NCBI GenBank assembly: GCA_963807605.1
Contig: CAWECG010000003.1
Coordinates: 768,001-832,000, forward strand
Source: Candidatus Bathyarchaeota archaeon
Lineage (GTDB): Archaea; Thermoproteota; Bathyarchaeia; 40CM-2-53-6; RBG-13-38-9
Direction of reading: 5' to 3'
Length of the DNA: 64,000 bases
The notes beneath the pieces were generated by a model. That model searched no databases, was not told where the DNA came from, and was given only the letters and a program-made list of their open reading frames with translations. The translations under genes and the position numbers were made by a program. This document shows positions 22,064-37,541 of the stretch, one piece after another. Within the stretch, counting starts at the first letter, position 1. The number at the start of each line of letters is the position of its first letter.

Positions 22064-22555
22064 TGCATATGTGTGCACTCAAAAATTCAGCTAAGGAAGA
22101 GGGAACTAAGTTTTGCATCAATTGTAATGCATGTCCCCCCTAAGGCGACCTTCTCTCTAGGATGTGGAGCGAAAAAATTAACCCAGGATTAGTGCGCATT
22201 TGGGATGATTGAATTCCACTGCCAAACACTACCTTGTATGAATCCAGACGTTAGAAGTAACATGTTCTGTTTTCAATGCTGTAAAACCCAGTAGCCACAT
22301 TCTAACTTCACATTCCAATTGGACGCTTTATTATCTGCGGAGTGCGAGAGAATGAAAGACTCGAAGGTTATGAAACCAGTTCAAATGGCCCTTATGTTCT
22401 ACAAAACGCAGAAAGATGCACGCGCGTAGAATCTGAACGCGCCTCGCTGATTCACCGAAACCAATTCACAACGTACGCTCACCAGCTGGCGGGCGCTGAC
22501 ACACACTCAATGCTTATTAGCGATAGATCCTAATTCCATGACGAGCTGACTTTGC

Positions 22556-24257: not shown

Positions 24258-24354
24258 TTACACCCGTGTGACAATTTGACTTTTCAACTGGCTGTAATGC
24301 CGCAATCGTTATGTGATGATGCATCTCTATTCCAATCCGGCCAGCGGATGGTGG

Positions 24355-24368
24355 CCTTAGCTGGTGAG
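24355..24368. repeat. target-site repeat copy 1 (degenerate, distal)
   Basis: CCTTAGCTGGTGAG, 13/14 identical to the copies at 28420 and 37414. Confidence 0.85.
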
Positions 24369-24436
24369 CACACACAATAGCCGATTATCCAATTACGTTA
24401 CCATTGATAGAACACAAACGGTTCTTACCTTATTCC

Positions 24437-25105
24437 TCACAGAAATGTGAGTAGCTCAGGTAGATCATGAATTCGTACCGTCGCCACCTTCGCCAGTTCT
24501 TCATCACTATTGACGGCCACAGCCAATCCGGCGTTCTTCAAGAATCTGACATCGTACCTGCTGTCCCCTACGCACACACAATCGCTCTTGCTTATGTGCA
24601 TATCATCGAGTACATGATCGAGCGCTTCGTCCTTGCGGTTGAGGTCAACCCTAAAGATCCCGTTTCCGGTCAGAAATCCATCTCTGTCGGTTTGAAGTCC
24701 GTTAGCCACAGCAACATCGACTCCAAGCAGCGAGGCAACCTGATCAGTAAGAAGATCCAGCCCCGCGGAGATGATGACGACTTTGTATCCCCTCTGTTTT
24801 ATTTGTTGGACAACTTCCTTGGCATGAGGCGTCAGGGTGAAACTCGACAATATCGCCTTGATTTGTGAGATATGGAGCCTTCTGGGCCAGAGAGAGATAT
24901 CACGACGCATGAACTCTTCGTAGTCGATCCGTGCCTGTATATATGAAGCTAGGTTCGGAGCAGCCTTCTCTACGGTTCCAAAGTGGCCATGAATCCTCAA
25001 TCAACTACTTTTCTCGTTTACTAGAGTTCCATCCAAGTCAAAAGTAACAAGGCGGAACTTAATGGATGTATGGCCGGTGTCGTGTCTATTTGTGAAGCTC
25101 CTCAT
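24437..25105 (-). pseudogene. HAD-IB phosphoserine-phosphatase-like protein with in-frame TGA
   Basis: ATG at 25105, FDLDGTL motif I, then SS*L (TGA at 25001-25003, where homologues usually have Trp), ISAG, VGDSRYD. Confidence 0.85.
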
Positions 25106-26195
25106 CATTCGCCGACCGGTTGTAATCCTTTTTCCGTGCGTTCGAGTTTGATCGTCCAGTAAGGTGCGAACCCCTCAAATTCATCAGATGTCGCTCGTAC
25201 TTTGATAGTCAGGCCCTTTGAGTCGAATTCATACACCGAATAGCAATTTTTCCCTATTATTCCGAGATCCTCTCTAACGACACCACTGCTCCCAGTTCCA
25301 TGAACTGCAAGAGATTGAGATGATTGATATTCGTTGTTCTTCGGAGGTCGAGAGATACAAGATACGAACGGTTGATGACGATGACCATGCGAGACTATGT
25401 CGACATTCAATTGCAGTGCCTTGTACATCAGCTGTCCCGCGTCCAAAGTCAGATCATAATTCCGGCTCAGTGTCGTTATTTCTTCTACTGGTGTGGCTGG
25501 GATAAGATGATGATGCATTGTCATGATTCTATACATTACACGTTGTCCGTCTACCTTCCAGTTGAGCGAGCTGGCGGCCTGTTCAAGTTGCTCTAGACCC
25601 ACAAACCCGTAGCCTGCGAATTGCCGGTCTTCTAGCCGGGTTGAGTTTAGCCCCAGCACATCAACTGTAACGTAATTGCTAAGTAAGTATCGGCGCCCCA
25701 ATGTGAGATGCTGGTTCGGAGGCAATCCGAACGCTGCCAAGAAGAAATCAACATAGTTCTTCTGCGCGACTTCGCTTGAGAATTGAACAGGCTTCTCTGG
25801 ATCGTACTTGTCATCTTCCTGCTCAGCCCATAGAATATCGTGATTACCAGGCACAACGATGAGATCATAATAAGGGTCCAGTTCAAAGATGGTCCTTAGC
25901 GTTGACGCGCGCGCGTGCCAATCGGATCCTCTGTGTCGGATACTTTGATGTCTTTCACTTTTGCTCTGTACGTCAGATGTTTCCCGCTATCCAGCAAGTA
26001 GACGACTAATGGCTCAGTCGTGCGAGCGGTTGTCGTGAAATCTGCAAACACGGCGCGCGGAATCTTTTCTTTGGGAAGTGCCCACCATCCCCACCAAACG
26101 TAACCGTGTTGAGTGATTAAATCTCGGTGCAGCTTTATTGTGAACCCTAGTTGGGTAGCAAGATCTCGGAATCTCAACACCATCGATGTCGGCAT
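25105..26195 (-). pseudogene. metallophosphoesterase with N-terminal WWGWW domain, internally deleted
   Basis: 5' part (GYVWWGWW) ends at (CG)5 at 25906-25915; another frame resumes with DLIVVPGNHD, HHH, HGHRH; the DxH and GD motifs are missing. Confidence 0.7.
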
Positions 26196-26324
26196 TAATC
26201 CTTACCTGTTTAGAGCGAGTAATGACCTGCTGTCAGCCATCTAGCGCGCGCTAGGGTTAGAGATGTCTTTTCCATATGGCTATTGGTGCCACATTTCAAA
26301 TAAGCATTGTCAGCACACGTCAAC

Positions 26325-27212
26325 CTAGCTACGCACGCATACTTTCTGCCGCCATACTAACCCGCACACAAATCGGGGGCAGTACAGATTTTTCCGGTAT
26401 CGATCGTACTTCATACGCTTCCCACAGTTAGGGCAGTTGAAGAAGCCCTCCCAACCGCAGGTCAAACCATCCTGGCAGGAGAAAACCCCAGATTTGGTAT
26501 AGATCAGCTTGCTTCCGCAGTCTGGGCATTCATATTGGGGTGGGTGGTCTTCCATCCACCGTTTGGCTTGTGGTTTTCCCGATTGTATATTCTCGTAGGC
26601 CAACCAGCCGTCAACTTTCTGAATAATGTCCTCCCCCAAAGTTGGGAAGGCGTAATTCGGATAATGCTCCACATTGTATTCCCTGCGGTCTTTGTAGTCG
26701 TCAGCGGTCAATTCTTTGTGCATGAATTCCTCAAAAGTCAATCCAAGTCGTTGCAGGTGTTGCCTTATTTCGCCCAGTTTTTCAGGGGCTTCGGATAGAA
26801 CCTTCTCCACGAGCCCTAGCATTTTTGCTCGGTCATGCGACGCCTCATATTCTTCGAGTATTCGCTGGAATTTCCAGGCTTCACGTCGATGATGATCCCT
26901 TTCCAGCTCGGTTAGGTATTTCGCCTTTGCAAGCTCCTCTAGATTTGTTGCTGTTTTGACTTCAATCTTCAACTTTTCAAGCTCTTCGTCTGTGGGAGTC
27001 TGCGAGGCCTCTGCTTTGGATTCTTCTTCCTCAGCTTTCTTGAGCTTTTGAAATTGGCGGAATATCGTTGACTTTGGCGTGTCAAGCTTTTCTGCAAGAG
27101 ATCTCAACGAAGCGAGCCCTGCCTTCCATTCTAAGTAGGCCTTTCTCAACTTGTTCTCACCTGGTTGGAAATTTGCGTCATTGAGTCCCGTACTTCGTTC
27201 AAGGAGAGTCAT
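26325..27212 (-). CDS. HTH + coiled coil + double zinc-ribbon protein
   Basis: SLRSLAEKLDTPKSTIFRQF HTH; CPDC...C...C and CPNC...CP..C. Confidence 0.75.
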   Translation of the reverse strand: MTLLERSTGLNDANFQPGENKLRKAYLEWKAGLASLRSLAEKLDTPKSTIFRQFQKLKKAEEEESKAEASQTPTDEELEKLKIEVKTATNLEELAKAKYLTELERDHHRREAWKFQRILEEYEASHDRAKMLGLVEKVLSEAPEKLGEIRQHLQRLGLTFEEFMHKELTADDYKDRREYNVEHYPNYAFPTLGEDIIQKVDGWLAYENIQSGKPQAKRWMEDHPPQYECPDCGSKLIYTKSGVFSCQDGLTCGWEGFFNCPNCGKRMKYDRYRKNLYCPRFVCGLVWRQKVCVRS

Positions 27213-27612
27213 GTGATCACCGTTAATTCAAGACTATTTAGCTATTTCCAGTTCATTTATAAGGCTTTTTGAAGTAAAAATGAATAATAAAGAGTAATAT
27301 GTTGAAATAAATAAGAAATCATTGAAATAATCAACAATCATGAAAATAAGCACTTCTTAAATTAAGGAAAGATGAATTCCCAAAAAATAAACAGGGACAA
27401 CCCGTTCGTGCATACACTGACAACCGCATCCGTCTGTAGGCTGAGGGAGGGAGACAAAGATTATCGGGGCATGTTCGACTTTTGACGGAACGTGCGCAGC
27501 TATTCTTTCTTGGAAGTGGTTCCCCACAGAATTCAAAAGGACACACTGATTCCAGATTATCAGCACGAATCAAGGTTGCACATACACGTAGTGGAGCACT
27601 ATGACCCCCACT

Positions 27613-27768
27613 GGGACAACCGGGACAATGAGGACAATGGGACACTAGAATCTGATGGAAAATCGGAGTCTTATGTATTGAAAAGATTTTTTGAATCATC
27701 TAAAAAAGTACTTGGGACACGTGAAACATGTGGAACATGGCAGGACATGTCAAAACAGAATGGGACAT
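27613..27768. repeat. iteron-like 9-10 bp periodic GGGACA/GGAACA repeats
   Basis: gggacaacc-gggacaatg-aggacaatg-ggacac (27613-27645) and gggacacgt-gaaacatgt-ggaacatgg-caggacatgt...gggacat (27714-27768). Confidence 0.75.
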
Positions 27769-27813
27769 AAGGCGGCTTAATCAGAGAAAGAAGCCAGGAA
27801 CGTCAAGGTAATA

Positions 27814-28176
27814 GTGTTGCTCTTGGCTGACGAAACACAAAACAGAACGTACTCGAAAGGCCAGCTAAACAAGATTATCGACTCAGTCGTGCATCCCCTT
27901 TTCAAAAAAGATGCCAAATTCATCATAGTTGACAGCGCTCTCCACGCACTTGTCGAACAAAATCCCACCCTCTCGATAAGTAAATTCCTCAAATACAACC
28001 TCCAAGAGATTGTCCAACAAACAGTTGGAAAAGACAAACTCAGAAAAAAGAGAGTTGACAGCCTCATAAGACAGTTAAGGAAATTGTCTAGAGAATACCA
28101 GAGCATCCCAAGAAGACGCGTGCGTTCTGGCGGCAAAGCATCAAATGCCGCGCGCGGGTCGACAACCTCGACGTAA
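27814..28176 (+). pseudogene. hypothetical protein fragment
   Basis: Upstream in-frame ATG cut off by a TAA (MGHKAA*SEKEARNVKVIV); the tail runs into GC-alternating tracts. Confidence 0.45.
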
Positions 28177-28317
28177 CTTTTTTTAAGATGCCACCAAAAC
28201 GAACATAACTGTGTTTAGACGATGAATAATCGGACTGTGGCAGGGTCTCTCCTACTAGTCGGCAGCGCCCAATACATCATTAGTATGATTGTGGCGGAGT
28301 CTGTATACCGCGCGCGC

Positions 28318-28410
28318 TTCTCATTTTTCCAGTTTTGTTGCCCTTCTTGAATTTGCGTTCAGGATGTTCAATGTAGTCTTCAACCATCTTATCCAGTGTA
28401 TTCCAGTATT
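28318..28410 (-). pseudogene. short remnant resembling the C-terminal region of casposon family B DNA polymerase
   Basis: Translates QYWNTLDKMVEDYIEHPERKFKKGNKTGKMR, resembling the YW..L....Y..HPE.K...G..G..RRH pattern I recall from casposon PolBs. Confidence 0.5.
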
Positions 28411-28419
28411 GTGTGTGTG

Positions 28420-28433
28420 CTTTAGCTGGTGAG
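28420..28433. repeat. target-site repeat copy 2, shared by elements A and B
   Basis: CTTTAGCTGGTGAG between (TG)n and (CGA)4. Confidence 0.92.
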
Positions 28434-29894
28434 CGACGACGACGAAACATTAATTCTGTGAGGGAATACCGGGTAGCACTGTGAAACGATTTCGAGTATT
28501 CTGTCGACTATGCGACAAACATCCGGAATAACATCGGGCAGGCTGCGTGGAGAGCCTCTTGGAATCCTGTGAAGTCTATGAAGTGGATTACCGCAGAGCG
28601 CAAATTCCGCATCACGCAATCCGCCCCAATGTCCATGAGAAAAAGTTGACATCCAAGAATAGAAGCAGTCGTACACATCTTTGGCACCGGCCTCTATACT
28701 GATCTTTCTGAGGTCTGCGTTCGCCCAGTGACCCAGTTCAATGGGCAAGAATTCTTGCCAGATGTCTTCGTTGGCGAGTGCTCGAAGCGTATCCGTATTT
28801 ACATAGCTCGATTTCTCGTTCAGGTGGTTCAGTTTTAGGTAGGATAACTTCACTTGGCCAGCGCCAAAGATCCTATATGATTTCCAGAGGTCATCCGTGT
28901 CTTTCACTGCTAGATACTTCAAAGTGATGTAACACTCCACAATAGTTCTAAGAATAATGCGCCCAGAAATGGAGTGGCTCAGGTGATTTCTGCACAGTTC
29001 CACGACTAAGCTGAGACAATAAAGCGCGATACCGAAAGTGGTGTCGTGGCGTGGATCTAATGCCGTTGTCGTTCTAGATTTGTTGCAGTGTTCCAAAAGG
29101 AGATCGTAAAGTTCCTTCACACGACTATCGGTACCCTCAAGGCTGTGCTCACTCGCTTGGACTTCTGGGATAGAATAGCAAGGAGTGTCACGCAGACATT
29201 GCTGCCAGAACGTGGCAGGCCATCTTCTGATCGTTTTATCAACTTGCCTGAAGGTTATTTCCATTGAGCGAATCGTCGGTTTGACTTTTCGCTGGTCTCC
29301 ACGGTCAGGGTAAAATAGGATTTCTTCTGCTATCTCTCTGTGTTCAGAAGAAAATTTTATTTTCCTAGAGACCATCATGCACAGCACTCTCACCCATCGG
29401 CAGTCCGTCGATTCTTGCGATTGATGATTGAGTATACTTGCCACAGCAAGCATTAGCGCCTCCCAATCTGTGCTCGAAGGAGAATCCTTGATCTTACTTG
29501 CCCATTCTCTTCTAGAGGGAATGTCCAACAGAAGAAGAGGCCTGAGTATGCGTCTATGTTCGTCGACTTCGACAAGAATATCTAGAATTTCATCGAGAAC
29601 AGGTGGTCTTAGATTCGAAAGACCAGTGTGTGTTATGTCGTCAGGGCGATCATTCCCCTGAAACTCAGCTACATATTTCACTATTTTTCGCAATACTGTC
29701 AAAGCATCTGGGCGAGGAAGATGTGAGAGCAAAAGTGACGTCCAAATGAACTCAGGTAGAAAGTCATCGATCCATGACATTGGCTGCAAATTCGGAATAG
29801 TTGCAAGCGACGGAATTAGGGTACCCTTGCTTAGCTTGTGCTGATCAATTGTTGAGTGATCATTCTTTGAAAGTGGTGTGCCTTGATTGGTCAA
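28422..29894 (-). CDS. DUF5677-like protein (cargo)
   Basis: 490 aa; IILRTIVE.YI, Y...S.FSHG.W helical C-terminal motifs; its stop lies in the target repeat. Confidence 0.65.
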   Translation of the reverse strand: MTNQGTPLSKNDHSTIDQHKLSKGTLIPSLATIPNLQPMSWIDDFLPEFIWTSLLLSHLPRPDALTVLRKIVKYVAEFQGNDRPDDITHTGLSNLRPPVLDEILDILVEVDEHRRILRPLLLLDIPSRREWASKIKDSPSSTDWEALMLAVASILNHQSQESTDCRWVRVLCMMVSRKIKFSSEHREIAEEILFYPDRGDQRKVKPTIRSMEITFRQVDKTIRRWPATFWQQCLRDTPCYSIPEVQASEHSLEGTDSRVKELYDLLLEHCNKSRTTTALDPRHDTTFGIALYCLSLVVELCRNHLSHSISGRIILRTIVECYITLKYLAVKDTDDLWKSYRIFGAGQVKLSYLKLNHLNEKSSYVNTDTLRALANEDIWQEFLPIELGHWANADLRKISIEAGAKDVYDCFYSWMSTFSHGHWGGLRDAEFALCGNPLHRLHRIPRGSPRSLPDVIPDVCRIVDRILEIVSQCYPVFPHRINVSSSSLTS

Positions 29895-30039
29895 AGTTAT
29901 TCTTCCTCAAGCTTATGCTAATCACAAGGTGAACTAATCACATACTCTCGCTGATCAAGTTGAAGTCTCCACATCTGTAACACTTTGGAGGTTGTTTTAC
30001 ACGAACACGCCCGCGAGTAGGGACGCCAATAGCTCCTTC

Positions 30040-31182
30040 CTAATGGTAGTCCGTTGGGTCTCCGGGGATCCAGTTTTCAAGAGGTTCCTTCAGAATAGTT
30101 GGCAATTGAGCATCATTGAAACATCTGTCTATCTGGTACATGTTCCTTTGCAGGTCACTCCCAAGTTTCGCCTTGATTGAAGTCGCAACCGGATCAACCA
30201 GAAATATCTTCAGCGCGAGATTTTCCTTGACCGCATTATAAAACACGTTGTTTACCGCTTCGTCTCTAAAGGAATAACCAATGACGATGCACACCGGGGT
30301 TCTCTTCAATTTCTCTTGAAACAAATGAAATAGTTCAAAGAAAGGATCTTGATAGATATATTTCGTTTGAATTGGATAGATCAACAATTCTCCGCGAATG
30401 TTATCTCCGTAGAGTGTTTTCTCTTGCCTCGCTGGCAGCAAGATAATTTCCCCTTTGTCAGTTATCCACTGGTCTATTGAACCGTGAAGCTTGTGAAGGC
30501 GAATGCGTTCGTCTCCGGCGAATCCTTCGTGTTGATGGAGATTCTTGATGTTGAAAATCATTTTGGTCTTGGTTGGATCCGCGTCGAATCCGTTTGTCAT
30601 TGGTATCATTTTCTTGTTACAGTATAGTTCTATGCAGAGGTCATAGTTAGTGGTGATTATGTCGACCGGAAGGTAAGTGGTTGCCGTGCCCGAAAGTCTG
30701 GCTGATATTATGTTGGTAATCCGTTCAGGAGATCTCGAAGCCTTAACTCTGAGAATGTTCAGCGCCTCAAAAAGTGAATCGTAGGTTTTAGTCATCTTGT
30801 CGATCTGTTCCTCTTTCAATCGAGAGGTCTCGTAGATGTAGTTCTTGATGGCTTGAATCGTATTCTCAAGATCTGGACGTTTAGGCAGTTGATCAATGGC
30901 ACTATATTGGGATAAGTACCATGGGAAGGGCCCAGAATCTCGAACGGCCTCTTTGGGGCTCATATAGCTGGTTAGAACGGTCAAGACCGATTCCAGATCG
31001 GGTGTAAAACCGAATTCTCTAATCTTCTTTTGAATTGACTCGATATCGTATTTGTTGATAGAGGGTATCTGCTTGATCTCATCGGTCATTTCCTGTAAAG
31101 TAGGAATGTCGAAACTCCTTGAGGCTCCTGCACCAAGAAAGACAATCACAAGAACCAACCCCCGCAAGCTACTAAGGCGCAC
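30040..31182 (-). CDS. SIR2-like (SIR2_2) protein, putative NADase
   Basis: FLGAGAS, TTNYD, KLHGSI, IGYSFRD. Confidence 0.9.
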   Translation of the reverse strand: MRLSSLRGLVLVIVFLGAGASRSFDIPTLQEMTDEIKQIPSINKYDIESIQKKIREFGFTPDLESVLTVLTSYMSPKEAVRDSGPFPWYLSQYSAIDQLPKRPDLENTIQAIKNYIYETSRLKEEQIDKMTKTYDSLFEALNILRVKASRSPERITNIISARLSGTATTYLPVDIITTNYDLCIELYCNKKMIPMTNGFDADPTKTKMIFNIKNLHQHEGFAGDERIRLHKLHGSIDQWITDKGEIILLPARQEKTLYGDNIRGELLIYPIQTKYIYQDPFFELFHLFQEKLKRTPVCIVIGYSFRDEAVNNVFYNAVKENLALKIFLVDPVATSIKAKLGSDLQRNMYQIDRCFNDAQLPTILKEPLENWIPGDPTDYH

Positions 31183-31183
31183 G

Positions 31184-32353
31184 CTAACTAGGAATAGTTT
31201 CCTCTGGGTAGTTTAGTCTGAAGAAATCCCTTACAATTTGGTCTTTGAGCTTGTAGTTTCCTTCCATTTTGAATATCAAATCGAACTCGATGAGTTTAGT
31301 CAAGTATCGAATCAGCCACTCCGGCCTTAGGCCCGTTTCTTTAGCAATTTTTGAAACGCTCATTTCTTCTTTTGAGAGAGCTCTTAGTATTCTCGCATAG
31401 TTCGTTTCTGTGACTTTAGAACCTAGATCATCGCTTAAAATATAGTTAACATACAAATAGAGGCCTCCAGTAACATTAGTCAACAGTCGCTCATATCTTT
31501 CTGCAACAGCCTCTCCCGGTCTTCTCGCTTCTGCCATTACAAGAAGGTAGAAAGGGTGCCCTCCTACAAGTCTGTAGACTTCTTCAGCTTCATTACGATC
31601 TACTTCTAGAGCTGCATTCAAGTAGAGCTCCCTAGCGTCTTTTTCCTCAAGAGGCCCAACCTCAATCAAGTTGAATCTGCCAAATAATGGTGAACCACCT
31701 TCACCAAATATACTCTTTAACATATGGACTCTGGAACCACTTAAGATGATGGAGACTCCTGCCAACTCATCTATGATTGATCTGAACTGATCCATCACAT
31801 TTTTCATACCGTCAAATCTAGTCCATTCAATGATTTTCTGAGCTTCATCCAAGATTATGACGACTCTTGTCCCTGAGACAGTGGCCAAATGGGAAGCGTA
31901 AGAAAAGGCTTTTCCAAAAGATTCAGTAAATCTTGGTTTTTCGTTCGCAAAAGCAGGTCTAATTGTCCAAACAGGTTTTCCGACATCATCTAGAGTGAGA
32001 TCGAACTCCACACGCAACCTTCTCAATTTCTTGATTTCTTTGATTGCATCACCTACCTGACTAATGATTTGTGATTTTACGTCAAGTGTTTTTTTATAGG
32101 ATTCGGTGAGCGAGTCGATGATGGCTTGGTTAAATTCACTAGGATCATAGCCATATTTTGAGAAATCTAGTCTCGTGACAATGACATTCTGGTCAGCTAA
32201 GCGTTTCTCCAGTTCCTTTAGGATAGCGGTTTTGCCAATTCTTCTTGGGCCTATTAGGGCATAATGCATTTTCGCGCCCAGTTTCGTCAGCCCTTCAAGA
32301 AGTTTTGTCAGTATTTCCTCTCGGTCAACTATGTTATCGAACATATATGTCAT
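31184..32353 (-). CDS. archaeal AAA/STAND-like ATPase with C-terminal winged helix
   Basis: VDREE, GPRRIGKT, IILDEAQ, LSGS, SPLFGR, GGHPFYL; HTH at SVSKIAKETGL. Confidence 0.88.
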   Translation of the reverse strand: MTYMFDNIVDREEILTKLLEGLTKLGAKMHYALIGPRRIGKTAILKELEKRLADQNVIVTRLDFSKYGYDPSEFNQAIIDSLTESYKKTLDVKSQIISQVGDAIKEIKKLRRLRVEFDLTLDDVGKPVWTIRPAFANEKPRFTESFGKAFSYASHLATVSGTRVVIILDEAQKIIEWTRFDGMKNVMDQFRSIIDELAGVSIILSGSRVHMLKSIFGEGGSPLFGRFNLIEVGPLEEKDARELYLNAALEVDRNEAEEVYRLVGGHPFYLLVMAEARRPGEAVAERYERLLTNVTGGLYLYVNYILSDDLGSKVTETNYARILRALSKEEMSVSKIAKETGLRPEWLIRYLTKLIEFDLIFKMEGNYKLKDQIVRDFFRLNYPEETIPS

Positions 32354-32470
32354 CTAACATATATGTTGAATTACATATAAGTTTCCCTGTCAACAATTGT
32401 TTCGCCAAGCTTACGAAGGCATGTTTTCCAACACATATGTCGTATAACATATATGCGATATAACATATGT
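32341..32470. repeat. palindromic ACAT(AT)ATGT repeat cluster over the ATPase start and upstream region
   Basis: Copies at 32341, 32357, 32373 (partial), 32433, 32447, 32463. Confidence 0.8.
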
Positions 32471-32827
32471 GCTAGTCGTCACCCATGACGTGTGCAATAC
32501 CTATGCCAATAACCTCGATTCTCTTCTATTGTCCTGTTTTAACCCCGTTACACTTCACTATTCCTGCTTAGACTACAAAAAAGGTGATTTTGTCTCCATA
32601 ATACTGCCGCAGATCTCGGATACAATTTCCAATACGGGAGAAATGTCCTGATTTTGCTTGATTCCATCAGAAACAACCTCATTCTACTAGCTATTTCTCT
32701 GATTCAATTAGCTTTTTGATATATCCCTCCTATGGTATTCTATGATTATGCTATGATTTAGTTTCAGAGATAACATGTCATAATCAGGCCAGAAGTGGAC
32801 ACCTCTATGTCTCCATTTCTCCTACAA

Positions 32828-33655
32828 TTATGGAGCATCTTGGACTCTAGTGGATTCTATCGGATTGAATCTGGAGTTCAAGTACTTGGATAAGTCAAGG
32901 AATTCATCAAACTCTTCCCGCGTGACATCAGTCTTTTCCTTCATTAGCGCCAAGGCCTTGAGAAACGTCTTAGCATTCAAGAAGAACCTGAAGCCGTAAA
33001 ATTTCATAGAGTCACCGATCTTGATGCTGATAGGAACCAGATCCTTCGCGATGTCTTTCGGAAGAATGACATCAACTGGTTGAGTTGGAAATTCTAAGTC
33101 AATCTTGTCTCCAACAGCGCTCTTGTCTTCCAGAAGAGAATCGTATATCCTGCAAACCGCAGATATGGGATAGCTATAGCTGAAGAGGAACATTCTGCTT
33201 AGGAAACCCATCTTAGCCCAATCGTGTCTGCCATCCTCCAGAGCATCTTCAGTAATCGCGGTCAATAGTCCGCAGTTCACTTCTTTGTCCCAGACATTAG
33301 CGTACGTTGTGATTTTTGCGACTCCTTCCTCAATGAGGTTATTCAGAAAAGCTATCAAAGACTGTCTTGTCTTCGCGCTTTTGCTGAGTGGAGTGATCAA
33401 GTCTGCTATTATGATGTGTTTGACCTCTCCTGACACTACCTTCGGCAGGACATCACGTGTTAGACCGAAAGCTGTACAATCGGTGTAGTAGACGATTCCC
33501 TTGTTCTCCTTGTACTTCTTCAGGACGGCTGTCTTTCCGCTTTCAGGTTTAGCGACAATAAGAAGCGAGAGAGGCTTCTCATCTTTCAAATATGCACTGT
33601 AGAGAGTAGCTCTTACTGTCTTTTCCAGTGCATCTAATTCTATAATTCTTGGCAA
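32828..33655 (-). CDS. AAA+ ATPase, putative replicative helicase
   Basis: Walker A AKPESGKT, Walker B IIIAD, LNNLIEEG, Arg-finger-like GFLSR. Confidence 0.75.
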   Translation of the reverse strand: MPRIIELDALEKTVRATLYSAYLKDEKPLSLLIVAKPESGKTAVLKKYKENKGIVYYTDCTAFGLTRDVLPKVVSGEVKHIIIADLITPLSKSAKTRQSLIAFLNNLIEEGVAKITTYANVWDKEVNCGLLTAITEDALEDGRHDWAKMGFLSRMFLFSYSYPISAVCRIYDSLLEDKSAVGDKIDLEFPTQPVDVILPKDIAKDLVPISIKIGDSMKFYGFRFFLNAKTFLKALALMKEKTDVTREEFDEFLDLSKYLNSRFNPIESTRVQDAP

Positions 33656-33687
33656 TATTCCTCAACCATTTTCTGTCTCGCCGAGCT

Positions 33688-34161
33688 TCATACTCGTACT
33701 CTCGTTCCAGCTCGCGATCTTCCTCTATGTTCACTGTCCTTATGCTCATGCTGAAGTCTCCTTGCGAGTGATCTTGTGTTCTGGATGGTTGACTGAGAAG
33801 ATGCACTGCCTCGATAGATAGTCCGCAATCTCTTGTTAGGAGATTCGAAGAGCTTGTTCCATTCCTTGAATCCAACTCGTATTCGCGCGCGATTGAAATC
33901 TACTCTTCGACAATCATCACCTAAAAGGAACTGTAATCGATTCGCAAGCTCCGATTTCATCGCAGGGATTATTTTGATGTAGAAGTGGTTGCCTTTGCAT
34001 CGACTTGGACACATTCTTATTTGGACAACTTTGACCCCATGATTCCTGCAAATATTGACCACTGACCGGACATAGTCGCTTATCCATTCATGGTCTACGA
34101 CACAGTCCTTATCGACCTTTAATTCATCGACGAGTCCTGCGTCTGTACCTTTTCTTGACAT
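33688..34161 (-). CDS. small archaeo-eukaryotic primase (AEP)-like protein
   Basis: LKVDKD (DxD), SRCKGNHFYI (SxxxGxH), LGDD in AEP motif order. Confidence 0.55.
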   Translation of the reverse strand: MSRKGTDAGLVDELKVDKDCVVDHEWISDYVRSVVNICRNHGVKVVQIRMCPSRCKGNHFYIKIIPAMKSELANRLQFLLGDDCRRVDFNRARIRVGFKEWNKLFESPNKRLRTIYRGSASSQSTIQNTRSLARRLQHEHKDSEHRGRSRAGTRVRV

Positions 34162-34495
34162 AACTAATCACTCTTGATGGTAGTCGGTGGGCCTTCCACC
34201 TCCGACCTTTGCGCTCCATCCTTAACGCTTCAATAGTCAGATGCCGTTGCGTCTTGGTTGCTGGTCTCTCACGCTCGAATGAAATCCTAATGTATTTTTT
34301 CGGAATCCAACGTCTATGCTTCCGATACAAATGTCGTTGAAAATATTGAAGCCCTCTTCTCGCAAGACTTCTCCTTACTCTTCTGATGTCACCTTTTCTC
34401 GTTGCCGTAATGTACATTTCCTGTTCCTGTGGTATCTTCTGATGCTCTTCATACCACATTGTAGAAACCGTCATTTTGTAGATTCTAGCCGACAT
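34124..34495 (-). CDS. very basic Arg/Lys-rich protein
   Basis: 123 aa, overlaps both neighbours in the same operon. Confidence 0.65.
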   Translation of the reverse strand: MSARIYKMTVSTMWYEEHQKIPQEQEMYITATRKGDIRRVRRSLARRGLQYFQRHLYRKHRRWIPKKYIRISFERERPATKTQRHLTIEALRMERKGRRWKAHRLPSRVISYVKKRYRRRTRR

Positions 34496-34751
34496 TGGAC
34501 ATCCTCTTTTCTTGGTAGCCCGATCCCTTGACTGAGCGGACCTTGTTGGGAGAATTTATCCAGAAAATCCAGCTTTTTGAAGACTTGACTGCCTGAATTC
34601 TACCTTCGTATAGGAGTTCTAGGCAATGTTTCAGGGCGGTGTTCCAGTTGCCAATCCTACACGCCACCCTAATCTTCTCTACATCCAATGGTTGCTGAGT
34701 TTCAGCGAGTTGCTTAAGAATGGAAGTCTTGTAATCGAAACTTTTCTTCAT
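34485..34751 (-). CDS. small winged-helix protein
   Basis: ILKQL...PLDVEKIR..CRIGNWNTALKHCLELL.EGRI...SKSWIFW; ATG at 34751. Confidence 0.7.
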   Translation of the reverse strand: MKKSFDYKTSILKQLAETQQPLDVEKIRVACRIGNWNTALKHCLELLYEGRIQAVKSSKSWIFWINSPNKVRSVKGSGYQEKRMSNVG

Positions 34752-34823
34752 TCGAATCGCCTTACAGAAGATCTTACATGAATTGTTATATAGAGGCGTA
34801 CACATGCAATTATCCGAAGATGC

Positions 34824-35498
34824 GTGGGTATGGACAAGTATGAGGCGCTTGCAGAGAAACTCAACCGTGTAAGAACAGGAATTCTGCTAAATGGTCCAAT
34901 CACTGTGTATGGTATCGAGAGATACTTAGACCTTCCAAATGCGACGGCTAAGAGATATTTCAAAACCCTGCTAAGAGAGAAAGAGATTATTCAATACAGG
35001 ACAGAACCGCACAAAAGTGGAAATATCAAGATACTCTATGGGCCGACCCTCTACGGTTATTTAAGATGGTTCAGAATCCCGAAGAGCATTGCCAAGAAGA
35101 ATTTTGGGGCAGCAATGAAAATTTGGCTTCCAGAAGACAAATTCGAATTCTTTCTACCCAAGAACGAATTACAAGAGGCGCTGAAGAATAGCCAAGTTGT
35201 AGTTCATTTATCGAGATTCTGTCAGATGATCGCAGATGTACTCCCTGACGCAGAAGACTTCTCAAGTTACCTAGAAGACCAAGGCTACAGCGAATCCAAT
35301 CCCTCACAGATAATCAGTCTAGCTATGCAATTTGTAGGCAGAAGCCATGCTAAAGAATGGACTGCAAGTTCAAAAGTTCTCGTCAAATATTTGCCGACCT
35401 ACCAGCAGCAGCTACAGCAATTCATTCGGAATCAGCGAGAACGACTTGATCGCATGGAAAAAGAGATCTTTGGGCATGAGGGAGGAAGTCAAGAATGA
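34824..35498 (+). CDS. HTH regulator upstream of cas1
   Basis: GPITVYGIERYLDLPNATAKRYFKTLL; ATGA overlap with cas1. Confidence 0.75.
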   Translation: MGMDKYEALAEKLNRVRTGILLNGPITVYGIERYLDLPNATAKRYFKTLLREKEIIQYRTEPHKSGNIKILYGPTLYGYLRWFRIPKSIAKKNFGAAMKIWLPEDKFEFFLPKNELQEALKNSQVVVHLSRFCQMIADVLPDAEDFSSYLEDQGYSESNPSQIISLAMQFVGRSHAKEWTASSKVLVKYLPTYQQQLQQFIRNQRERLDRMEKEIFGHEGGSQE

Positions 35499-36703
35499 AT
35501 CCTCTTCATCTTTCTGGTTACGGCGTCAAGGTCAAGGTCGATAATATGCGTCCTAAGTCAGAGCTTGTGATATCTGATGGCAGACAGGACTTCAAGGAAG
35601 GCTCAGCCTATCGCTTTAGGCCAAGAAAGATTCCTTATGACTCCATCATCATTGACGGTCACAGCGGCTACATCTCTCTTCAAGCCTTCCACTGGCTATC
35701 CAAGAACAAGATTCCAGTCTTCATCCTCAACTTCGATGGTAGCTTGATTTCGTCTATTCTTCCTCCTATGCCTGTTAAGGCTGACTTGAGAGCTGCACAA
35801 TTAGACGCCTCAAGAGATGCTGAGAAGACATTCAAGATTGCATATGAACTGGTGAAGGCTAAGATTCAGAGAACCCATGATGTCTTGAAGTGGCTTGCAG
35901 ATAGATACGACATAGAAAAGCAAGCGAGGAAAGTCAAAAAAGAATCCTTGACTCTCTCAAAGGCAAGTACAATCAAAGACCTGAGAATTGTCGAAGGCAG
36001 AGTAGCTCTAAGATATTGGCAAACTATCCAGTCAGTTATTCCTGAGACCTTTGATTTTCAAGGCAGAATCACCAAGAAACATCAGTACAATGCTTCAGAC
36101 CCTGTTAATCTGGCGCTGAACTATGCTTATGGAGTATTGGAGGGCGAATGCCGTAGAGCAATAAACATCGTAGGCTTAGAGCCTTCAGTCGGCTTTTTGC
36201 CTGATTTCGCTGATTACCAGACCAAACAATCATTGGTCTACGACTTGCAGGAACCCTTCAGATGGATTGGTGAAATAGCTACAATACAGGCCTTCGAGTC
36301 GGGTCTACTGGATATGAAAGATTTCTATTTCATGGGCGACGATTACCGCTATCACCTTGAGATAGAAGCTAAGAGAAGATTCCTACGATTTCTCAAAGAA
36401 CGATTCAACTCAGCAATTAGGTACAAAGGCAAGGTATGGCAGTGGGATACTGTTATCCTGAATAAGGTTCAAGAGTTAAGCAGATTCTTTCTTGGGAGAT
36501 CCAAGTTCGTAGACTTCATAGAACCTGCTCCAAGTCTGGTAAGAAGCGATAGTTTGGAATTTCGCAATCGAATTCTAGAGCTGACACAGAAACAGGCTCA
36601 AGGACTTGGCATGAGTAAGAGTACTCTTCATCATCTGCGTAAGAATATTAGTAGTGATAAATCGTTTAGAGTATATCAGAAGGTTGCCTGTAGGCTGAAG
36701 TAA
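35495..36703 (+). CDS. cas1: casposase-type solo Cas1 with C-terminal HTH
   Basis: MNPLHLSGYG start, IPYDSIIIDGHSG.IS, VEGRVA..YW, ASDPVNLALNYAYG.LE, SLVYDLQEPFR, HTH QAQGLGMSKSTLHHL; no cas2 or CRISPR array. Confidence 0.92.
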   Translation: MNPLHLSGYGVKVKVDNMRPKSELVISDGRQDFKEGSAYRFRPRKIPYDSIIIDGHSGYISLQAFHWLSKNKIPVFILNFDGSLISSILPPMPVKADLRAAQLDASRDAEKTFKIAYELVKAKIQRTHDVLKWLADRYDIEKQARKVKKESLTLSKASTIKDLRIVEGRVALRYWQTIQSVIPETFDFQGRITKKHQYNASDPVNLALNYAYGVLEGECRRAINIVGLEPSVGFLPDFADYQTKQSLVYDLQEPFRWIGEIATIQAFESGLLDMKDFYFMGDDYRYHLEIEAKRRFLRFLKERFNSAIRYKGKVWQWDTVILNKVQELSRFFLGRSKFVDFIEPAPSLVRSDSLEFRNRILELTQKQAQGLGMSKSTLHHLRKNISSDKSFRVYQKVACRLK

Positions 36704-37396
36704 ATGGCTGAGAAGAAGCATTCTAGACGTAGATTTCTGAAGTATGTAGGAGCGGGGATTGTTGCAGCAACTGCTGGAATATGCTACCTAACTAAGGACT
36801 ATTGGTATTCTCGCATACAGGAAGCCTACAAAGAATTCTATACAAGAATGTTTCCAGAAAGGAGTTCGACTACCACCACAACAGCTTCCACCACAACAGA
36901 AACTCAAACTCCCAGTATTATCCAATCACCATCGGCCACTGTAACTCCAACACCAACACCAAAGGAACAGATGTCCGAAGACGAAATAATGATAAGAGGA
37001 GTCCTGGCTGCGTGGAGAGATCTCTACAATCCTGGAAAAACGGGTAATACTCTCGGGGTCTATACGGACGATGCCGTCTTGGATTTTGGCTGCAGTAGTG
37101 ATAGAGTCGGGAGCTTTACCGGGTCGGCTGAAATATCAGCGTTCATCAGTGGACGTGTGGCTGAAGATGATTGCAAAATGGCGAATCAGATAATAGAAAC
37201 GTTGAGAATACAGGACAATGAGGCATATGTCGTATGCTATGAGGATTTGATGACTAGCAGAGGAACCGCTAGATGGCTCAGCAAATTCAAGCTGAGAAAG
37301 ATCAGCGAAATCAGGCGTGGAGCCAGCACATTCAAACTCCCAAAACCACTTTGGAAAATACAGGATGAGTATTCTCACTGTGCGCAAGACGGCTGA
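36704..37396 (+). CDS. Tat-signal protein with Thr-rich linker and NTF2/SnoaL-like domain
   Basis: SRRRFLK twin-arginine motif, poly-Thr/Pro, IRGVLAAWRD, YTDDAVL, LWKI. Confidence 0.8.
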   Translation: MAEKKHSRRRFLKYVGAGIVAATAGICYLTKDYWYSRIQEAYKEFYTRMFPERSSTTTTTASTTTETQTPSIIQSPSATVTPTPTPKEQMSEDEIMIRGVLAAWRDLYNPGKTGNTLGVYTDDAVLDFGCSSDRVGSFTGSAEISAFISGRVAEDDCKMANQIIETLRIQDNEAYVVCYEDLMTSRGTARWLSKFKLRKISEIRRGASTFKLPKPLWKIQDEYSHCAQDG

Positions 37397-37413
37397 AATC
37401 GTCGTCGTCGTCG

Positions 37414-37427
37414 CTTTAGCTGGTGAG
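37414..37427. repeat. target-site repeat copy 3 (proximal to putative leader)
   Basis: CTTTAGCTGGTGAG immediately after (TCG)5. Confidence 0.92.
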
Positions 37428-37446
37428 AGCATCCAGATTTGAACCG
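37421..37446 (-). other. tRNA 3'-end-like motif forming the putative casposase target
   Basis: Minus strand CGG-TTCAAAT-CTGGA-TGCTCTC-A-CCA: T-loop, exactly 12 nt, discriminator, CCA; no recognisable 5' half. Confidence 0.6.
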
Positions 37447-37541
37447 TTAGATTATGATTTTGTGTGTGGTGCTACTTGGTTAGAGTATCGAGATCCCCCT
37501 TCACTTTGCACATGCCAGAACTCCTCGGAACTATTGAACTG

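Follow-up and report, generated by a model that had tools for sequence, protein, structure and literature searches.

How does a casposon-like element end, and what keeps its two ends alike? The question is raised by two adjacent elements in a 64,000-nt stretch of DNA (the window) from a Candidatus Bathyarchaeota archaeon (contig CAWECG010000003.1, positions 768,001 to 832,000 of assembly GCA_963807605.1). Casposons are mobile elements that integrate by means of a Cas1-like enzyme, the casposase. Published casposon terminal inverted repeats (TIRs) are 25-602 nt long, however, the elements studied here end in very short microsatellites. A first-pass annotation made from the sequence alone reported that both elements carry four repeat units at one end and five at the leader-side end, proposed that the ends are telomere-like tracts made by slippage or slide-back priming, possibly by an AEP-like protein, and that the casposase accepts different repeat units.

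The tracts are exactly as that annotation described them. Element A (24369-28419, 4051 bp) begins with (CA)4 at 24369-24376 and ends with (CA)5 on the minus strand, read as (TG)5 on the plus strand at 28410-28419. Element B (28434-37413, 8980 bp) begins with (CGA)4 at 28434-28445 and ends with (CGA)5 on the minus strand, read as (TCG)5 at 37399-37413. Inverted identity beyond the tract is 3 nt in A and 0 in B. Each tract abuts a 14-bp direct repeat (plus strand), the target-site duplication: copy 1 at 24355-24368, with one mismatch to the others, copy 2 at 28420-28433, shared by A and B, and copy 3 at 37414-37427. To the right lies the leader (37428-37444, minus strand), a mimic of a tRNA T-arm with the motif TCAAATC at 37436-37442, 8 nt from the duplication, as mapped for the Aciduliprofundum boonei casposase. 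The leader-side end is thus the longer one in both elements. Three of the four ends were reproduced in a separate Logan assembly of what is probably the source run (matches L138, one mismatch in 9065 nt, and L140, 100%), which checks the assembly but is not an independent sample. An assembly artefact is rejected for these three ends, and by the occurrence of the junction in 52 genomes.

Element A has no cas1, is non-autonomous and is probably the older insertion. Its cargo comprises a HAD hydrolase (24437-25000), an ORF at 25105-25854, a Pua-like protein (25896-26195), a Zn-ribbon ORF (26325-27212; 61% to an ORF in the Cas1 element L002, where L numbers denote the loci compared) and an ORF at 27814-28176. 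Element B is a PolB-less casposon-like element. On the minus strand it carries a DUF5677 cargo gene (28422-29894), which lost its stop codon and reads through the tip into the target duplication, and a defence-like cargo region (30040-32353) made of a SIR2_2 protein (30040-31182) and an archaeal ATPase-wHTH (31184-32353). These are followed on the same strand by a conserved P-loop ATPase of the element module (32828-33655), whose subfamily was not resolved by the comparisons made, a minimal AEP-like protein (33688-34161) and a conserved basic protein (34124-34495). Two small putative regulators (34485-34805, minus; 34824-35498, plus) are HTH-like by inspection only and gave no Pfam hit. The Cas1 casposase (35495-36703, plus) has a C-terminal HTH extension, and a last cargo ORF with a TAT-like signal (36704-37396, plus) has its stop codon 2 nt from the right tip.

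The casposase matches Pfam Cas_Cas1 (E 2.7e-49) and, in profile searches, the Methanosarcina mazei family 2 casposase 6OPM over its whole length (1-402, E 1.7e-97), against 1e-32 for CRISPR Cas1; no other cas gene was found among the ORFs of the element. Of the catalytic residues (E162/H232/E247 in M. mazei), E167 and E253 are present while His236 is replaced by Pro (codon at 36200). The residue is His in 28 of 28 aligned homologues, indicating that the substitution concerns this copy and not the family. No relative of this Cas1 was found among viral contigs.

The AEP-like assignment rests on motifs and weak fold hits for a protein of only about 120 aa. The residues D17-x-D19, G57-x-H59, G81-D-D and R86 were recognized; among 81 sequences D17 and D19 are invariant and G57, H59, G81, D82 and D83 nearly so. 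Weak Pfam AEP-TOTE hits were obtained in 7 members, and the Atlas assignment was AEP-like at 0.90. A structural model (pLDDT 87) gave as top hits LigD-Pol (Foldseek E 0.017) and HP0184 (VIA Z 6.1, rmsd 3.2, 95 aligned), not clearly above unrelated folds. The AEP-like and basic genes co-occur in 53 of 55 loci that have either one, the basic gene always lies beside the AEP-like gene, the two are apparently fused in L048, and the module sits by cas1 in about 26-28 of 44 loci examined. The basic protein gave no convincing fold match (best Z 5.3, TM 0.5), which does not show a new fold.

Are such tips general? About 150 microsatellite tips occur in this genome, and 86 of 152 (CA)>=4 tracts start at a target site of this type, against 1 of 178 (AG)>=4 tracts, so they are not chance microsatellites. 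The junction of target and (CA)4 was found in 52 of 105 genomes of the same order of Bathyarchaeia (control 0) and in 1 of 300 other genomes of the phylum. Among 21 complete homologous Cas1 elements (L002 and L057 are the same element and were counted once), 19 carry the same unit, CA, CGA or CCG, at both ends (p=1.7e-4) and 17 have perfect duplications. Tract lengths at the two ends correlate (rho 0.73, n=15), although this may reflect kinship or host. CA, CGA, CCA, CCG and canonical GGGGATA tips share one target. Cas1 trees reject a clade for the two CGA/CGA elements (AU p=1.6e-4) and for the CCG elements (p=7e-7), in a quick tree of 30 sequences with groups named after a first tree had been seen; on this evidence the unit is not set by the Cas1 lineage.

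The difference between four and five units is within chance. Of the 19 unit-matched homologues 5 show one extra unit at the leader side, three of them also as 4/5, but overall the leader end is longer in 6, shorter in 5 and equal in 8 (sign test p=1.0). In the genome 10-nt tracts are somewhat commoner on the leader side (18 of 58 against 6 of 46), while the medians are 8 and 8 nt (p=0.36). Moreover, the same tip is found at either side, and the (CGA)4 of element B is composite: it arises from an 8-nt deletion, its inner unit using two bases of the cargo gene. A fixed extra unit as a footprint of integration or priming is therefore very improbable, and a strict rule is refuted by the homologues.

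The interpretation in the first-pass annotation was partly supported. It had named long conventional TIRs in homologous elements as the finding that would refute it, and this was examined: 18 of 21 complete homologues, most with perfect duplications and full-length cas1, have no inverted similarity above background beyond the tract. L049, L057 and L077 have 26-108 nt of inverted identity behind it, but even these long TIRs begin with the microsatellite, and the canonical GGGGATA ends in the same genome share no sequence with the tips. Deletion leftovers of long TIRs are thus very unlikely and contradicted for most homologues, and the reading of the tracts as the true termini is supported. Acceptance of several units by casposases of this group is supported, the asymmetry as a rule is not supported, and telomere-like synthesis by the AEP-like protein is only partly supported. 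Since identical tips pass through integration unchanged and CCG-tipped elements show no such AEP, synthesis at every round is unlikely; a role for the AEP module remains an inference from one sister pair and from tip turnover.

The explanation judged best, though held at no better than even confidence, is that A and B are PolB-less, family-2-like casposon elements inserted in tandem at one tRNA-3'-end-like target, with minimal, heritable microsatellite TIRs. The analysis itself establishes that the TIRs are reduced to 8-15-nt microsatellites, that all units start with C, so the 3' end offered to Cas1 is G, that the unit matches at both ends, that tips are inherited through integration in either orientation, and that length drifts by 1-2 units in either direction, with rare expansions to 58 units; the 4/5 difference is ordinary drift. 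From casposase biochemistry, only about five terminal bases of a single-stranded end are read (PMC6614799), so a short repeat can serve as the whole TIR, and a 14-nt staggered attack next to the leader gives the duplications. What is inferred, including any primase, polymerase or repeat-synthesis activity, is that the element is copied as a linear molecule whose strands start at the tips, and that its AEP/basic-protein/ATPase module, or an equivalent module in CCG elements, initiates on the repeat and realigns, as in sliding-back or jumping-back initiation. This would restore the last bases, set the unit, keep both ends alike, and occasionally re-form or graft a tip on new DNA (cargo, or the target plus leader about 35 nt beyond the old end). 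Terminal reiterations serve slide-back initiation in phi29, PRD1 and adenovirus (PMC5175343), and an archaeal plasmid AEP primes at a trinucleotide motif (PMC2034472).

In favor of this view, the two CGA/CGA elements are sisters in the AEP plus basic-protein tree (SH-aLRT 97). Yet this is one pair in a quick tree, and other AEP loci with a CGA end next to cas1 (L001, L002, L055, L056) do not group with it. Tip turnover was also observed: pairs 95-100% identical inside differ in the first 6-15 nt and the tract (L088/L103; C1:520630/C3:455385, given as contig and position), a CA/CGA switch occurs at 87% identity, and tips are joined to sequence that is internal elsewhere. Compound tips, and linkers that are nearly all distinct among captured leaders, also count in favor. 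Many new junctions show microhomology, however, and may be plain deletions. A search of CCG elements with the family profile found no AEP, which does not exclude a more distant one. As to length variation at the level of reads, the only run found held 5% of the words, as unrelated contigs, and was uninformative.

A more passive alternative, tentatively kept as the main rival, regards the tracts only as the Cas1 end signal: host replication slippage would vary their length, recombination between ends and microhomology deletions would move or swap them, and the AEP module would copy the element without shaping the tips. Identical tips in different target contexts and orientations (L088/L105; L031/C1:411209), the CGA tip beside DUF5677, which persists over 10% divergence and slid by the 8-nt deletion, the absence of a detected AEP in CCG elements and the longer inverted similarity in L049 and L057 agree with this view. 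It does not explain why every tip type is a short repeat when Cas1 reads about five bases, why both ends change unit together across unrelated Cas1 lineages, or why tip-proximal linkers turn over faster than internal DNA. Telomerase-like capping, in which an element enzyme would add repeats de novo and without template to free ends at each mobilization, so that any DNA piece could be capped and integrated by Cas1 as a giant spacer, is unlikely. Tracts up to (CA)58, compound tips such as (CGA)3(CA)4, T-rich and nearly all different linkers before the tract in captured leaders, and tips 2 nt from, or inside, cargo genes speak for it. On the other hand, tip length and linker can be unchanged between separate insertions, linkers recur between ends, which suggests copying, and no reverse transcriptase is among the Pfam hits of the element. 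A bolder reading, less likely than not on present evidence, is a casposon lineage in which a minimal AEP module writes unit-specific microsatellite caps onto DNA ends, so creating new transposon ends on cargo or flanking DNA that a unit-tolerant Cas1 then integrates into growing leader-repeat arrays; if true, it would answer how casposon ends are generated and give a primase-plus-Cas1 gene-capture system between casposons and CRISPR adaptation.

How casposons produce the free ends that Cas1 integrates is still unresolved, and every described casposon has PolB and a long TIR. Here a large natural series has PolB-less elements whose whole TIR is a microsatellite, with at least four units that are matched within an element and uncoupled from the Cas1 tree, which makes the question testable with small proteins. 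It also shows a casposase lineage with relaxed end specificity building repeat-insert-repeat-leader arrays, the property expected of a CRISPR-adaptation ancestor. No description of microsatellite casposon ends was found in the literature searched, which did not include most subscription journals.

The closest systems are the family 2 casposons of M. mazei (MetMaz elements) and A. boonei (AciBoo-C1), which share with these elements the Cas1 with a C-terminal HTH region, the 14-bp duplication, its CGCA-type start in most relatives (CTCA here), the tRNA 3'-end target with TCAAATC 8 nt away and tandem insertion at one site. L115 is inserted at an Rfam tRNA, while the target in the window is a tRNA-end mimic. 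In contrast, no PolB was found in B (the two PolB matches of the genome lie far from it, at C4:414041 and C3:239508), Pfam scans of the ORFs of A and B gave no HNH hit, an AEP-like/basic/ATPase module is present instead, the TIRs of A and B are 8-15 nt made only of a microsatellite, several tip units share one target, sites number well over 100 per genome, many of them non-autonomous, and elements carry their own target near the tip. The sequence-specific AEP primases (pRN1 ORF904; LigD-Pol, HP0184 and viral PrimPol folds) share the DxD, GxH and later Asp motifs and are among the best, though weak, fold hits, but the protein of element B is about 120 aa, with no helix-bundle domain seen and a separate basic partner. 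The sliding-back and jumping-back systems of phi29, PRD1, Bam35 and adenovirus likewise have short terminal reiterations at both ends of a linear element; they use a terminal protein and a protein-primed PolB with 2-4 repeats of fixed number, neither protein was found here, and repeat number varies from 3 to 58. Telomeres offer a resemblance only: short TG-rich repeats of variable length on the 3' strand at both ends, whereas these ends are integrated, mostly 4-8 units long, and no telomerase-like enzyme was seen.

The locus also recalls a CRISPR leader-repeat-spacer array in its repeat-insert-repeat-insert-repeat-leader order, and the leader-distal repeat copy is the mutated one, which fits newest-next-to-leader order. 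The inserts, however, are elements of 4051 and 8980 bp with defined tips and not short spacers, the repeat is 14 bp and not 23-50 nt, and no Cas2 hit or interference genes were found beside it. Further to the right, an outer (TG)4 tip and a degenerate further target copy (37461-37483, plus strand) place the leader of this array inside an older element end; 61 distinct linkers, mostly 25-47 nt, were found among 62 captured leaders.

The microsatellite tracts reported by the first-pass annotation at the ends of elements A and B lie exactly where they were placed: (CA)4 at 24369, (TG)5 ending at 28419, (CGA)4 at 28434 and (TCG)5 ending at 37413, so that the observation itself is confirmed. They abut three copies of a 14-bp repeat (24355, 28420 and 37414), the first of which differs at one base, and inverted identity beyond the tracts is 3 nt for A and 0 for B. 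Logan contigs, probably of the source run, reproduce the left and right ends of A as well as the left end of B. The layout of the locus is repeat, A, repeat, B, repeat and leader, and on the minus strand the leader carries TCAAATC 8 nt from the repeat, the motif mapped for the A. boonei casposase (PMC6614799). A degenerate (CCA)2-type tip precedes the first repeat (24349-24354) and an inverted target copy with a decayed CA tract occurs upstream (22478-22506); these may bound an older third segment carrying FKBP, SnoaL-like and cupin genes.

Close relatives are Candidatus Bathyarchaeia. Element B encodes a stand-alone Cas1 whose family profile matches the M. mazei casposase 6OPM over its full length, including the HTH tail (E 1.7e-97). 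In this copy the catalytic His is replaced by Pro through one base change (codon at 36200-36202), which is the same in the separate assembly, whereas His is present in all 28 aligned homologues; it is inferred that B probably cannot move by its own enzyme. No PolB or HNH was detected in the element. Divergent from cas1 lies a module formed by a basic 123-aa protein, a small AEP-like protein and a P-loop ATPase, found beside cas1 in about 26-28 of 44 loci examined. The assignment of the AEP-like protein rests on conserved DxD, GxH and GDD motifs and on weak but consistent hits to LigD-Pol, HP0184 and PrimPols. The basic and AEP-like proteins are apparently fused naturally in the homologous locus L048 (7487-8323). 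In another such locus, L027 (3955-11215), a casposase with the AEP module lies directly beside a type III CRISPR-Cas locus that has its own Cas1, and no microsatellite tip was found within the locus. An array of 16-bp-spaced, partly palindromic repeats occurs in B just upstream of the cargo ATPase-wHTH gene (32315-32484) and is possibly an operator or an origin. Element A has no cas1 and carries only cargo.

Microsatellite tips are a clade-wide design. The genome contains about 160 target copies, the flanks of which include 106 CA, 25 CGA, 18 CCA and 15 canonical GGGGATA ends. Tracts reach (CA)58, (CA)34 and (CA)26 (C3:39707, C1:520645 and C4:19365, C1, C3 and C4 being contigs of this genome), which is very long for an archaeal genome, although long tracts may be mis-sized by assembly. 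Of 152 (CA)>=4 tracts, 86 start at a target site, against 1 of 178 (AG)>=4 tracts. The junction of target and (CA)4 occurs in 52 of 105 genomes of the order, with no control hits, and in 1 of 300 other genomes sampled from the phylum. In most relatives the duplication starts with CGCA, as in M. mazei, and one element (L115) sits at a real tRNA 3' end. The canonical GGGGATA casposon ends use the same target (e.g., C1:421139 and C3:51890); they are mostly orphan in this genome, and one occurs next to a distant Cas1 (47%) in the locus L035 (at 4805).

To examine the ends in complete homologues, 21 distinct Cas1 elements were collected that are bracketed by a 14-bp repeat with at most one mismatch and carry a tract at both inner sides. 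As this selects for elements with tracts, it tests matching and symmetry, not frequency. The unit matches at both ends in 19 of them (CA, CGA or CCG; permutation p=1.7e-4, although kin are not independent), and the lengths of the two CA tips correlate (rho 0.73, n=15). The leader-side tip is longer in 6, shorter in 5 and equal in 8; a difference of +1 occurs in 5, so two of two in the window is unremarkable. Genome-wide medians are 8 and 8 nt (p=0.36). Only L049, L057 and L088 exceed background similarity beyond the tract, L088 because both ends carry a leader, while L077 has a 108-nt inverted repeat whose outer flank is also inverted, so it may be an assembly effect. The condition set beforehand as refuting the first-pass reading, namely that homologous elements have long conventional TIRs of which these tracts are deletion leftovers, is therefore not fulfilled, while the claim of a 4-versus-5 asymmetry fails and should be dropped.

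The left tip of B is composite. The locus L134 is 90% identical over 28413-31161 and has the same CGA tip beside DUF5677, but keeps the stop codon and an 8-nt linker before three units. The window lacks these 8 nt, so two cargo bases complete a fourth unit and the gene reads through tip and duplication. The unit is thus inherited over 10% divergence, and the junction slides on microhomology.

Identical tips occur in different targets and orientations (L088/L105; L031/C1:411209), so tips belong to the element before integration and are not always rewritten. Other pairs are 95-100% identical inside yet differ in the tract and the first 6-15 nt. One pair switches CA to CGA, and some tips are joined to DNA that is internal elsewhere, including part of element A. 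The right part of A (28098-28157) recurs twice on contig C1 (C1:358449-358971 and C1:426358), and one copy has a (CA)5 tip attached about 260 bp inside A's end. Compound tips also occur. At least 62 of 160 leaders are followed within a short distance (mostly 25-47 nt) by a tract and another target, with 61 different linkers. The locus L033 holds such an inner target only once, which fits capture beyond an old end better than nested insertion. Many (CG)4-7 palindromic tracts were also observed genome-wide, often between genes and near cassette junctions (in the window at 25906, 26244, 28149, 28309 and 33884).

The unit is not set by the Cas1 lineage alone. The two intact CGA/CGA elements with the module (B and L115) and the CCG elements are rejected as Cas1 clades, although CGA ends do cluster next to cas1 in B's own Cas1 clade. 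B and L115 are sisters in the tree of the AEP-like and basic proteins (support 97). The CCG-tipped elements (L049, L050, L051, L077, L087, L118 and L119), which belong to two Cas1 clades, lack a detectable copy of this module and share three small unannotated genes (for example L049 13025-14145), candidates for another end-forming module. This points either to the accessory module or to co-inheritance of ends with it, either of which fits the data.

Casposases take single-stranded ends, need about five terminal bases, make 14-bp duplications next to a leader and insert in tandem. Short terminal reiterations let linear replicons regain their last bases by realignment (PMC5175343), and an archaeal plasmid AEP primes at a trinucleotide (PMC2034472). 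While the tips, their matching within elements and their inheritance were read from the sequences, their mode of formation, including any priming by the AEP-like module, is inferred. In the preferred view, held to be about as likely as not, the tips would be at once the Cas1 signal and the start sites for copying by the element's module, with realignment giving symmetric length drift and occasional new tips. A tentative alternative, somewhat less favored, is that the tracts are passive minimal TIRs whose length varies by host slippage. Template-free capping at each round is unlikely, the origin of the tracts as deletion leftovers is very unlikely, and a fixed +1 footprint is the least probable of these readings. 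The first-pass interpretation, which regarded the ends as telomere-like tracts made by slippage or slide-back priming, possibly by the AEP-like protein, and the casposase as accepting different repeat units, was partly supported. The system works like a family 2 casposon but lacks PolB, HNH and long TIRs (published casposon TIR range 25-602 nt, PMC4046053), and its microsatellite tips, which are real, are undescribed as far as the literature searched shows.
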